From Halorussus marinus (GTDB lineage: Archaea; Halobacteriota; Halobacteria; Halobacteriales; Haladaptataceae): 64,000 bases of DNA. Made by a program: the position numbers and the translations under genes. The DNA lies in NCBI RefSeq assembly GCF_004765795.1, contig NZ_SBIV01000002.1, positions 310,001 to 374,000 of the forward strand, given 5' to 3'. Shown one piece after another: positions 42,780-46,540 of this stretch; within the stretch, counting starts at the first letter, position 1, and each line of letters opens with the position of its first letter. The notes beneath the pieces are model-generated. The model searched no databases and had not been told where the DNA came from. It worked only from the letters and a program-made list of their open reading frames with translations.

Positions 42780-45407
42780 TCAGGGGAACACCAGCACGGT
42801 CGCGCGCTCGGTCTCCAGAACCTCGACCTCCTCGCCGCTCTCGGCGCGGTACTCCTCCTCGATCTCGACCGCGTCGCCGTCGATGGAGACGCTCTCGCCG
42901 TCGACCTCCAGGGAGATCTCGCCCTCGATCTCCTTCTCGTTTTTGAGCTGGGTGAGGTCGGCCGACTCCAGTGCCCCGACCACCTGTCCCGCCTCGTCGC
43001 GGAACTGCGGGCCGATGACGCTGTGGTCGGGGTCGACGCCGACCGGGACGAGTTCGACGTTCGGCGAGCCGGTTTCGAGGTAGACGGGCGCGTTGACCGC
43101 CTCGCTCAGGTCGTAGGTGTCGTAGCCCCGGCCCTGATCGGAGTACACCTCGATCCGGTCGAGGTCGGCGTTGAGCGCCATCCCCTCGTCGGACTTCCAC
43201 GCCCGGACCGTACTGGCGACCTCGGCGATGAGGTCGCCTTTCGCCTCGGCGTCCTCGTCGCCCTCGAAGGCCGCGTCGGGCCACGAGGCGGCGTGGACGC
43301 TCCCCTCGGTGCCGGGCAGGTGGTCGTACACCTCCTCGGCGAAGTGGGGCGCGAACGGCGCGAGCATCCGGACCGACGCCGACACCGCGGTGTACAGCGC
43401 GTGGCGGGCGGCGTCGCGCTCGCCGGGCCGGCCCTCGTAGAGGCGGCCCTTCACGAGTTCGAGGTAGTCGTCGGCCAGATCCTCCCAGACGAACTCCCGG
43501 AGTTCGCGGAGCGCGCTGTCGAAGCGGTACTCGCGCATGTCGGCCTCGACCGTCTCGGCGGTGTCGGCGAGCTTCGTGAGGATCCACTGGTCGGCGTCGC
43601 GGTAGGCCGGCGCGCCGATCTCGGGAGTCTCCTCGTCGAGGTGCTCGCTTGCGAACTGGAAGATGTTCCAGCACTTGGTGAGAAATCGCGAGGCGGAGGT
43701 GACCTCCTTCCACTGGAACTGGATGTCGCTACCGGGCTGGCCGCCGAGCGCGAGCGCCTGCCGGACCGCGTCGGCGCTGTGCTCCTCGACGGCCTCCTCG
43801 GGGCCGACCGCGTTGCCCCGGGACTTGCTCATCTTGTGGCCGTCGTCGCCAAACACCATCCCGTTGATCAGCGCCTCCTCCCAAGGCACCTCGTCTTCGA
43901 GCGCCGTCACGCGGAGCAGGGTGTAGAACGCCCACGTCCGGATGATGTCGTGGCCCTGCTGGCGGAGCGTCGTCGGCTCGAAGTCGGCGTCGGGCCACCC
44001 CTGAACGTGCATCGGGGAGATCGACGAGTCCATCCAGGTGTCCATCACGTCGGTCTCGCCCTCCCAGTCGTCGGCCCCGCACTCGGGGCACGCCTCGATC
44101 GCCGGGTCGGACTCGGTGGGCTCGACCGGGAGCGCTTCGACGTCGGCGACGTGGACGTGGCCACAGTCGTTGCAGAACCACGCCGGGATCGGGGTGGCGA
44201 ACACGCGCTGGCGCGAGATCACCCAGTCCCACTCCATCCCCTCGGTCCAGTCTTCGAGGCGGTCGTACATGTGGTCGGGAATCCACTCGACCTCGGCGGC
44301 CTTCTCGAGGATCTCGTCCTGTCGGACCTCCACGAACCACTGCTCTTTCGAGAGGATCTCGATCGGAGTGTCACACCGCCAGCACGCCCCGACCGACTGG
44401 TCGGTGGGCTCGGTGTCGTTGAGGTAGCCCGCCTCCTCGAGGTCCTCGGCGATGGTGGTCTTGGCCGCTTCGACGGTCAGGCCCTCGTACTCGCCGGCGA
44501 GTTCGCCGAGCCGACCGTCCTCGGTGAACACCGGCCGCAGGTCGAGGTCGTGTTCGGCCCACCAGTCGACGTCCTGCTTGTCGCCGAACGTACAGATCAT
44601 CACCGCGCCGGTGCCGAAGTCGCCGTCGACGTCGTCGTCGGCCAGCAGTTCGACCTCCTGGCCGAACAGCGGCACCTCGAAGGTGTCGCCGACCCGGTCG
44701 GCGTAGCGCTCGTCGTCGGGGTCGACCGCCATCCCGACGCAGGCCGCCAGCAGTTCCGGGCGAGTGGTCGCGATCTCGATGTCGTCGTTGTCGACCCCGT
44801 CGAAGGTGACGTAGTGGAGTCGCCCTTCGCGGTCGACGTTCTCGACCTCGGCGTCGGCGATCGCGGTCTCACAGCGCGGACACCAGTTGACGGGGTGTTC
44901 GTCGCGGTAGACGTAGCTCTCCTCCTCGTCGCCCTCCGCCATCTCGACGAACGACCGCTGGGTCTTCTCCCAGTACTCGGGGTCCATGGTGCGGTACTCT
45001 GCCGACCAGTCCTGCGAGAACCCCATCGCGTGCATCGTCTCTTTCATCCCGTCGATCCGGCGTTCGGAGAGTTCGACACAGAGCTCTCGGAACTCCTCGC
45101 GCGGGACGTCGGTGCGGTGGATGTCCTGTTCTTCCTCGACTTTCACCTCGGTTGGGAGGCCGTGACAGTCCCACCCCTGCGGGAACAACACGTTCTCGCC
45201 GAGCATCCGGTGGAATCGGGCGGCAAAGTCCATGTAGCTCCAGCCCAGCGCGTGGCCGATGTGGAGCTGGCCGGTGGGGTACGGCGGCGGGGTGTCGACC
45301 ACGTAGTCGGGCTCGCCGTCGGGGTTGTACACCTCCGAGCCGCGCCATGCTTCCTGCCACTTCGGTTCGACTGTCTCGGGGTCGTAGCTGTCGGGAACGT
45401 CTGTCAT
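42780..45407 (-). CDS. valS: Valine--tRNA ligase
   Basis: [34 protein letters not shown]. Confidence 0.96.
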
Positions 45408-45473
45408 AGTGGAATAGCTGACTCTGTCGGAGAGGTCATCCGGCGAGAAAGACGCGCCGTTGCGCTGGACGGT

Positions 45474-45503
45474 TCAACGTACTACCGACGCGGTCAGCCT
45501 CAT
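45474..45503 (-). CDS. Putative valS leader peptide MRLTASVVR
   Basis: ATG AGG CTG ACC GCG TCG GTA GTA CGT TGA; a TATA-like box lies at -30..-23 of this ATG. Confidence 0.65.
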   Translation of the reverse strand: MRLTASVVR

Positions 45504-45525
45504 ACGAAACCGAAACAGTCGGGTA

Positions 45526-45540
45526 CTGATAAAGGTTCTC
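45526..45540 (-). promoter_or_regulatory. BRE/TATA promoter of the leader-valS transcript
   Basis: GAGAACC-TTTATCAG, spaced for a leaderless start at the uORF ATG. Confidence 0.6.
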
Positions 45541-45634: not shown

Positions 45635-46540
45635 ATGCAACTGGGCGTCATCGGACTGGGCCGGATGGGCCGGATCGTCGTGGACAGGGTACTCGACGCG
45701 GGCCACGACGTGGTCGCGTTCGACCTCGACGAGCAGGCGGTCGCGGACGCCGCCGACGCGGGCGCGACCCCCGCCGACTCGGTGGTCGACCTCGCCGAAC
45801 GCCTCGGCGACGAGAAGCGCATCTGGCTCATGGTGCCGGCGGGCGAGCCGGTCGACGCCGCTCTCGACGACCTCGAACCGCACCTCGGCGCCGACGACGT
45901 CGTGGTCGACGGCGGCAACTCCCACTTCGAGGACTCGACGCGCCGAGCCGACTCGACCGACGCCGCGTACCTCGACTGTGGCACCTCGGGCGGTCCCGCC
46001 GGGGCCGAACTCGGCTTCTCGCTGATGATCGGCGGCCCGGAGTGGGCCTACGGGGAGCTGACCCCGGTCTTCGACGCGGTCGCGACCGGGCCGGCGGGCC
46101 ACGACCGGATGGGGCCGGCCGGGTCGGGCCACTACGTCAAGATGGTCCACAACGGCGTCGAGTACGCGCTGATGCAGGCGTACGGCGAGGGCTTCGAACT
46201 GCTGGCGGAGGGCCGGTACGACCTCGACCTCGAAGCGGTCGCCCGGACGTGGAACAACGGCGCTGTCATCCGGTCGTGGCTCCTCGAACTCTGCGAGGAG
46301 GCGTTCCGCGAGGAGGGCACCCACCTCGGCACGGTCGACGACTACGTGGCCGGCGGCTCGACCGGGACGTGGACCGTCCAGGAGGCGCTCGAACAGGAGG
46401 TCCCGCTCCCGCTGATCTATCAGGCGCTCGCCGAGCGGTTCGGCTCGCGAGCGCCCGACGAGGGTCGGTTCTCGCGCAGACTGGCGAACCGGCTCCGGTA
46501 CGGATTCGGTCGCCACGAGGTCGCGCGACGCGACGAATAG
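45635..46540 (+). CDS. gnd: 6-phosphogluconate dehydrogenase (decarboxylating, short type)
   Basis: GLGRMG, DGGNS, GTSGG, GHYVKMVHNGVEY, FGRH. Confidence 0.95.
   Translation: MQLGVIGLGRMGRIVVDRVLDAGHDVVAFDLDEQAVADAADAGATPADSVVDLAERLGDEKRIWLMVPAGEPVDAALDDLEPHLGADDVVVDGGNSHFEDSTRRADSTDAAYLDCGTSGGPAGAELGFSLMIGGPEWAYGELTPVFDAVATGPAGHDRMGPAGSGHYVKMVHNGVEYALMQAYGEGFELLAEGRYDLDLEAVARTWNNGAVIRSWLLELCEEAFREEGTHLGTVDDYVAGGSTGTWTVQEALEQEVPLPLIYQALAERFGSRAPDEGRFSRRLANRLRYGFGRHEVARRDE

Follow-up and report, generated by a model that had tools for sequence, protein, structure and literature searches.

For bacteria, attenuation by leader peptides is textbook knowledge. In the pheM-pheST system of E. coli a synthetase gene is preceded by a small leader ORF that contains cognate codons, and the speed of the ribosome on it reads the level of charged tRNA. 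Other synthetase genes are controlled differently, thrS of E. coli autogenously by its own synthetase and valS of Firmicutes by a T-box, for which the likely signal is uncharged tRNA-Val. In the ermC and cat translational attenuators a helix has its 3' strand next to the main start, and a ribosome stalled by a drug covers the 5' strand. In the enterobacterial ilvL, ivbL, leuL and trpL leaders and in that of the corynebacterial ilvBNC operon the leader ORF has Val/Ile/Leu or Trp codons towards its end, as described in the accessible parts of PMC10272879 and PMC11857589.

The literature searched, mostly openly accessible papers and largely abstracts, contained no description of leader-peptide attenuation in archaea. 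A 'leuA-Halobacteria' RNA motif was reportedly described by Weinberg et al. in 2017. That motif is absent from the accessible main text of PMC5737381 and from the literature searched. Structured-leader control was deemed untypical of haloarchaea in the Haloferax start-site study (PMC4983044, as far as its text was available).

The leader described here precedes valS in Halorussus marinus, and it probably represents conserved, bacterial-style control by valine in an archaeon and in most of its relatives. It shares with pheM-pheST the short ORF with cognate codons, but has an archaeal TATA/BRE promoter, a leaderless uORF and two sensor codons of one rare type, and has neither the GC-rich hairpin with a long run of seven or eight U residues nor the separate antiterminator helix of the classical trpL and pheM leaders. 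The haloarchaeal ilvB and trpS2 leaders described below follow the logic of the ilvL and trpL types; in the present case, however, the target is valS, the putative termination signal is a short archaeal U-tract, and the polymerase, ribosome and termination factors are archaeal. As in ermC and cat, a stalled ribosome would cover the 5' side of a helix the partner of which adjoins the main start, but the trigger would be a shortage of tRNA, no Shine-Dalgarno-like sequence is evident in this type of valS and the AUG lies outside the helix. With the T-box of Firmicute valS it has in common the gene controlled and the probable signal, uncharged tRNA-Val, but the haloarchaeal leader is short (about 96 nt from uORF start to valS start) and has a conserved reading frame. 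No Rfam T-box matched at the gathering score in the 64-kb window (the whole 64,000-nt stretch of DNA analysed) or in loci L002, L007, L030 and L035, and no Rfam family fell on the valS leader or on the sister leaders scanned, including 20 leuA-like/ilvB loci. In the available Haloferax volcanii data the same design is recognisable at HVO_A0126A, at a 26-aa ORF before HVO_2948, at HVO_1509 and at HVO_1101s, while valS of that species has no such leader.

The valS locus of Halorussus marinus

A first-pass annotation, made from the sequence, had proposed a valine-sensing attenuator before valS, and all the elements it named were found on the minus strand (Table 1). The gene was identified as valS by its match to NCBIfam PRK13208, at 1016 bits where the cut-off is 738, and is divergent from a 6-phosphogluconate dehydrogenase gene starting at 45635. 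Among named relatives the nearest are Halorussus species, at 81-89% identity over the first 200 residues. The haloarchaeal promoter consensus is TTWT for the TATA box and CGAAA for the BRE (PMC4983044, available text). Judged from the spacing of the TATA box, a short leader ORF would stand at the 5' end of the valS transcript. One RNA-seq run covered part of the window and gave one 269-nt contig of depth 2, possibly DNA carry-over, which spans 45210-45478 from the uORF stop into valS and is too thin to carry weight.

Table 1. Elements of the valS leader region, numbered from the first letter of the window.
Feature	Position	Strand	Comment
BRE-like CGAGAA	45541-45536	-	promoter, upstream of the TATA box
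TATA box TTTATCAG, TTTAT(CAG)	45533-45526	-	spacing fits a start site on the uORF AUG
Leaderless uORF, 9 codons, MRLTASVVR, stop TGA	45503-45474	-	putatively translated
Switch strand, uORF codons 2-6	45499-45485	-	would pair with the proximal or the distal arm
Sensor codons GTA GTA (Val-Val)	45485-45480	-	within the uORF
GCGC-AACG-GCGC hairpin	45465-45454	-	GUCUUUCUC comes next
Proximal arm CGGCGCGUC	45459-45451	-	predicted to pair with 45495-45486 in nascent RNA
UUUCUC tract	45450-45445	-	candidate site of premature termination or cleavage
Distal arm CCGAC-AGA-GUCAGCU	45430-45416	-	complement of 45499-45485; ends 8 nt before the valS ATG
valS, valine-tRNA ligase, 875 aa	45407-42780	-	putative regulated gene

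The sensor codon is rare in the host genome. GTA makes up 3.05% of the Val codons in 1643 long ORFs, and only 12 of the 5689 Val-Val pairs in the same ORFs are GTA-GTA. There is one gene for tRNA-Val(TAC), the single reader of GUA as tRNA-Val(UAC). Two arrays of tRNA genes, at G000:C7:29732-35885 (14 genes) and G000:C11:67665-71768 (15 genes), are similar in content and hold no tRNA-Val; such arrays are typical of mobile elements or proviruses. When folded singly, the leader was no more stable than chance (z = -0.5, with 61 of 200 shuffles equally stable), and the case for it therefore rests on conservation.

Conservation of the uORF and its GUA codons

The first-pass annotation had called for an alignment across the Halobacteria. 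A class-wide sample of 121 genomes contained the present type of ValRS in 28. In 26 of these a TATA box stands ahead of an ATG that opens a short ORF in which GTA-GTA is in frame, and in the two exceptions (L027 and L028) the TATA box immediately precedes valS. At named loci of the Halobacteria the uORF is present in 51 of 53, ie 50 recovered by the standard filter together with L072, where it is positioned farther upstream. One locus, L089, has a variant uORF with a GTG start and GTA-ATA, and L079 has none. None of the 27 loci outside the Halobacteria proper (L104-L130) has a Val-Val uORF.

Removal of duplicates and of loci containing N left 73 distinct leaders, counts from which overstate the number of events, the leaders being kin and not independent. 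GTAGTA is present in 71 and a single GTA in the remaining two, and in all 73 a promoter-spaced ATG is in frame with the GUA codons. The frame is kept at four spacings, with 18 nt (n = 57), 15 nt (n = 13), 9 nt (n = 2) or 21 nt (n = 1) between the ATG and the Val codons. All three stop codons occur, 0-7 codons past the Val codons, and the 73 leaders encode 53 different peptides, the constant part of which is Val-Val-Arg. The same uORFs have 66 Val codons besides the sensors, and 60 of them are GTG or GTC. The first A/T run lies at -30 or -31 from the uORF ATG in 59 of the 73, matching the A/T peak of the host's ordinary genes, and this agrees with the earlier proposal that transcription starts at the uORF. 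The proposal of a leaderless uORF with two GUA codons is likewise borne out, as both its start and its Val codons are conserved. Conservation of the rare GUA codons in frame supports the sensing of Val-tRNA by the ribosome, with valine as the putative regulator of the gene.

The second ValRS lineage

The other 93 of the 121 genomes have a different ValRS, four loci of which were confirmed as valS, and the leaders of 42 of the 93 were examined. All 12 loci of family f2 have the promoter directly before valS and no uORF. Outside f2, 29 of 30 loci have a uORF of 18-32 codons which ends in Val-Gly-Ala-x, with GTA GGG, and is followed by a GGGGC...GCCCC hairpin. When the ATG was picked by promoter score and the frame ignored, every one of the 29 had the GTA in frame, at distances of 42-84 nt. 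A U-tract, defined throughout as UUUC, UUCU or UUUU no more than 70 nt past the uORF stop, lies downstream in 25 of the 29. With GTA in frame in both types of valS leader, two unrelated designs have settled on the same rare codon.

Several other features of these loci were recorded. At L029 a second-lineage valS has neither promoter nor uORF, and the end of the upstream gene is a GGGGCGTCC stretch resembling the leader hairpin, as if a deletion had joined that gene to valS. The valS leaders of family f6 (L030, L031, L033, L034, L040 and L131-L144) have an extra conserved stretch (CGACGGAUGUAUUGU...CGACC) and, lying over a Shine-Dalgarno-like GGCGGUGA, the hairpin CGCCC...GGGCG; in this family a second small ORF overlaps the valS start. 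The two ValRS types (L001-L028 against L029-L050 and L131-L150) are mixed within family f5, a distribution which hints at gene replacement.

Sister leaders before other genes

It had been predicted that the leaders of other synthetase genes and of ilv genes share the design. A scan for uORFs gave 150 candidates in the host genome, and a looser scan added ilvB. Cognate-codon uORFs were found before pheS (Phe), trpS2 (Trp), ilvB (Ile/Val), dapA (Lys) and argG (Arg), the identities being from NCBIfam for all but ilvB, which was assigned from its sequence and neighbours. None was found in the host genome before the putative thrS, serS, proS, glyS, hisS, ileS, leuS, cysS, aspS, tyrS or gltX genes, as named in that survey by Pfam PF00587, tblastn and known motifs. 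For pheS, trpS2 and ilvB the prediction held, their leaders being conserved with cognate codons.

Runs of Phe codons, with exchange between TTC and TTT, precede pheS at 27 of 30 loci. The trpS2 uORF has at least one Trp codon at 19 of 20 loci and at least two at 18. The ilvB uORF contains (Leu/Ile)-Ile-Val-Gly with GTA GGG at 19 of 20 loci and a variant of it at the remaining one. A dapA uORF with Lys was seen at 14 of 20 loci. An Arg-rich argG uORF was seen at 19 of 20, a weak signal because Arg is common in GC-rich frames. The U-tract survey gave locus counts of its own for dapA, argG and ilvB; these came from a loose motif and do not enter the conservation figures above. The U-tract itself is present in 16 of 19 trpS2 leaders, 13 of 20 ilvB leaders and 1 of 27 pheS leaders.

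In the host genome the pheS uORF (L151, G000:C10) lies 240 nt before pheS at 97190, is leaderless and of the type Gly-Phe-Gly-Phe-Phe-Phe (L157-L186), and is followed by a conserved GGUGGA...GAAACC element without a U-tract. The pheS switch must be unlike the one proposed for valS. Some 30 nt ahead of the pheS start there is a second promoter-like stretch. The trpS2 gene encodes a second tryptophan-tRNA ligase; its uORF (L187, G000:C2), with Trp-Arg-Trp (L216-L235), lies 157 nt before the gene at 437885 in a leader with a conserved GCUC(A/C)CUC and a U-tract. The ilvB uORF (L194:2795-2878, G000:C9; L196-L215) combines Ile-Ile-Val-Gly with a GGGGC...GCCCC hairpin, the same module as in the second-lineage valS leader, which suggests that the latter was borrowed from an ilvB leader or that the two have a common origin. 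The argG uORF (L152, G000:C2:539405) is rich in Arg (CGA) and that of dapA (L153, G000:C1:247531) carries Lys (AAA).

Three further uORFs were seen. An 8-codon uORF, MAVQSVVR, overlaps the purU start (L156, G000:C6:179427-179453), and its end (GTG GTA CGA) resembles that of the valS uORF. Promoter-spaced uORFs also precede the glutamate dehydrogenase gene gdh (L154, G000:C9:54059), where the end is Val-rich, and the threonine ammonia-lyase gene ilvA (L155, G000:C3:61301), where the uORF ends in GTA.

Published data from Haloferax volcanii

The sister leaders were compared with the accessible portions of published Haloferax volcanii data. In PMC4983044 the start site of pheS (HVO_2948) is 212 nt upstream, at the A of the AUG of the 26-aa uORF (our locus L186), and the upstream start site of dapA coincides with the G of the GUG that opens a uORF with AAA-AAA, catalogued as sRNA HVO_1101s. 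HVO_1509 is the annotated name of the ilvB uORF, which has a start site 3 nt ahead of it, and small ORFs before trpS and pheS appear in Table 2 of the same paper, where their codons draw no comment in the portion seen. The Trp uORF HVO_A0126A, before trpS HVO_A0127, is sORFribo4 in Supplementary Table 5D of PMC10117724, translated by Ribo-seq and with a 20-nt leader, and the Trp uORF of L223 is identical to it letter for letter. An RNA 3' end 47 nt past HVO_1509 is in the TTTC-motif table of PMC7237163. It sits at the GUUUUC/A of locus L199, and could be an ordinary small-gene terminator or a processing site.

No leader 3' ends for pheS, dapA or trpS2 were found in the one Haloferax Term-seq supplement searched, under the position prefixes tried, and no small ORF corresponding to the Ile-Val or Phe leader peptides was found among the matches listed in two Haloferax Ribo-seq supplements. 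The 5' UTR of H. volcanii valS is 6 nt (PMC4983044, available portion), in agreement with the uORF-less family f2, and this would explain why the Haloferax studies missed the valS uORF. For argG that study gives a strong leaderless start and a weak upstream one, so not every leader is retained in every lineage. The attenuator label was not found for the pheS, trpS, ilvB and dapA leaders in the parts of the Haloferax publications available.

Candidate termination signal and proposed mechanism

A U-tract follows the uORF in 69 of the 73 valS leaders, compared with a mean of 15.1 and a maximum of 23 in shuffles and with 467 of 1293 ordinary stop codons. The Haloferax motif for intergenic 3' ends is a T stretch with TC (PMC7237163, in the part available), and the UUUCUC of valS, a brief run of U closed by C within untranslated RNA, fits it. 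The tract lies 19-45 nt from the first GUA, ie past the footprint of a stalled ribosome. In nascent RNA of the host, pairing of the switch strand with the proximal arm is predicted to give a hairpin abutting UUUCUC, at -19.8 kcal/mol. The cognate specificity of this pairing across relatives is only marginal, being equalled in 367 of 5000 permutations, and the proximal helix is at threshold in 37 of 67 leaders. The modelled nascent fold is the same with the ribosome at the Val codons as with the ribosome at the stop (-3.4 against -3.3 kcal/mol), which leaves dwell time as the necessary basis of the switch. The predicted folds contain no separate antiterminator helix, and a scan of the leader for bacterial promoters and terminators gave neither a promoter nor a terminator-like site.

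Two other pairings were rejected. The GCGC-AACG-GCGC hairpin, put forward by the first-pass annotation, is intact in only 3 of the 6 sequences of the closest clade, and is not a conserved terminator stem. As for the Val-Val-Arg codons, only 12 of 70 nascent folds pair them with the bases that precede the tract.

The sensing step is the firmest part of the model, and we consider it highly probable that the ribosome, in reading the leader, gauges the supply of charged tRNA-Val(UAC). Transcription would start on the uORF AUG, as published for three sister leaders in Haloferax, and a ribosome would load immediately. With ample Val-tRNA it would read through GUA-GUA, reach the stop 1-4 codons on and depart; the uORF strand of the bare RNA would then pair with the bases adjoining UUUCUC and transcription would end there, intrinsically or via aCPSF1/FttA. 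With scarce Val-tRNA the ribosome would linger on GUA-GUA, where by modelled position it would cover the whole switch strand; it would still be on the nascent RNA as the polymerase passes the tract, and valS would be transcribed. In the read-through RNA the switch strand would pair with the distal arm near the valS start, a probable second layer which may damp translation or alter stability after ribosomes clear the uORF. For the model as a whole, a gauge of Val-tRNA which raises valS when the charged tRNA is short and acts mainly through termination, the balance tips slightly in favour.

Review literature, in the portions available, has aCPSF1/FttA acting on U-tracts, and its competition with ribosomes on nascent RNA was raised as speculation in PMC8116511 (accessible text). 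A broader proposal is that valS, pheS, trpS2, ilvB, dapA and argG form a genome-wide set of leaderless attenuators, in which the time a ribosome spends on one or two cognate codons determines whether the polymerase stops at the short U-tract, possibly by way of aCPSF1/FttA access. We regard this as evenly poised between true and false.

The distal helix and the valS start region

The first-pass annotation had paired the uORF with the 3' part of the leader, and this helix stood up well. Cognate arms pair at -19.2 kcal/mol, a value reached in 0 of 5000 permutations, against -16.0 for permuted arms. The result was again 0 of 5000 with 19 dissimilar representatives, while shuffled-arm controls gave 4006, 3947 and 288 of 5000. 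Of the 73 minimum free energy folds, 50 contain the helix, and in most leaders its end is separated from the valS AUG by 9-13 nt. RNAalifold found 0 consensus pairs in an alignment of 40 leaders, because the clades differ in the register of the helix and alignment of the 3' halves is poor. The helix reappears when clades are aligned separately, with few two-sided changes, and one pair is G-C, A-U and C-G within a clade of 6 sequences.

These observations bear on a reading in which the gauge of Val-tRNA is the same but the output purely translational, the distal arm blocking 30S loading at valS until a stalled ribosome frees it. Besides the specificity of the helix and its changing pair, the modelled stall speaks for this, as masking by the ribosome eased opening of the region -20 to +13 in 50 of the 73 leaders, against 14 of 73 with a control mask. 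The mean gain was however only 1.9 kcal/mol, falling to 0.2 kcal/mol for -12 to +15, and in the host genome itself the modelled stall raised the opening energy from 7.6 to 12.3 kcal/mol. In most leaders the helix does not include the AUG, and the conserved U-tract would be left unexplained. We therefore think translational output by itself doubtful. The first-pass annotation had offered two effects of a stalled ribosome, freeing of the valS initiation region or prevention of termination. The former is the weaker in view of the position of the AUG, the lack of an evident Shine-Dalgarno-like sequence and the rise in opening cost in the host genome, and the latter fits better; the conserved UUUCUC makes premature termination the likelier output.

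Other readings of the GUA codons

Alternatively, GUAGUACG could be read as nucleotides, by ValRS at an autogenous site, by another DNA- or RNA-binding protein, or as a T-box-like specifier for the UAC anticodon. The motif contains UAC, and GTAGTACG is near-invariant and almost free of synonymous change, with CGT next in 58 of the 73 leaders, which would fit a nucleotide-level reader equally well. On the other hand, the frame is preserved despite changes in length, there is no match to the Rfam T-box or another family, and GUA is also present in ilvB leaders, where it is needless for autoregulation by ValRS. The sister leaders have other cognate codons with synonymous exchange, and conservation of the cognate amino acids through such change favours reading by the ribosome over a nucleotide-binding factor. 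A nucleotide-level reader is thus improbable. Translation of the uORF for a purpose other than sensing valine, whether reinitiation at valS, protection of the RNA or a small functional peptide, is very improbable: a leaderless AUG is the haloarchaeal default (72% of transcripts, PMC4983044) and leader-gene reinitiation has been proposed for bacteria (PMC4833913), each according to the part of the source available, but the peptide varies apart from Val-Val-Arg, at least some 45 nt separate its stop from valS, and the amino acid in the uORF is in each case that of the regulated gene.

If the genome-wide set of attenuators proposed above is real, the coupling of transcription and translation would serve as an amino-acid sensor in Archaea, and synthetase-level tuning would be shown in a group which here gave no Rfam T-box match. 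Several published small proteins and one sRNA would be re-labelled as attenuator leaders. Such leaders would also provide a short natural substrate, in genetically tractable haloarchaea, for the question of competition between the ribosome and aCPSF1/FttA.
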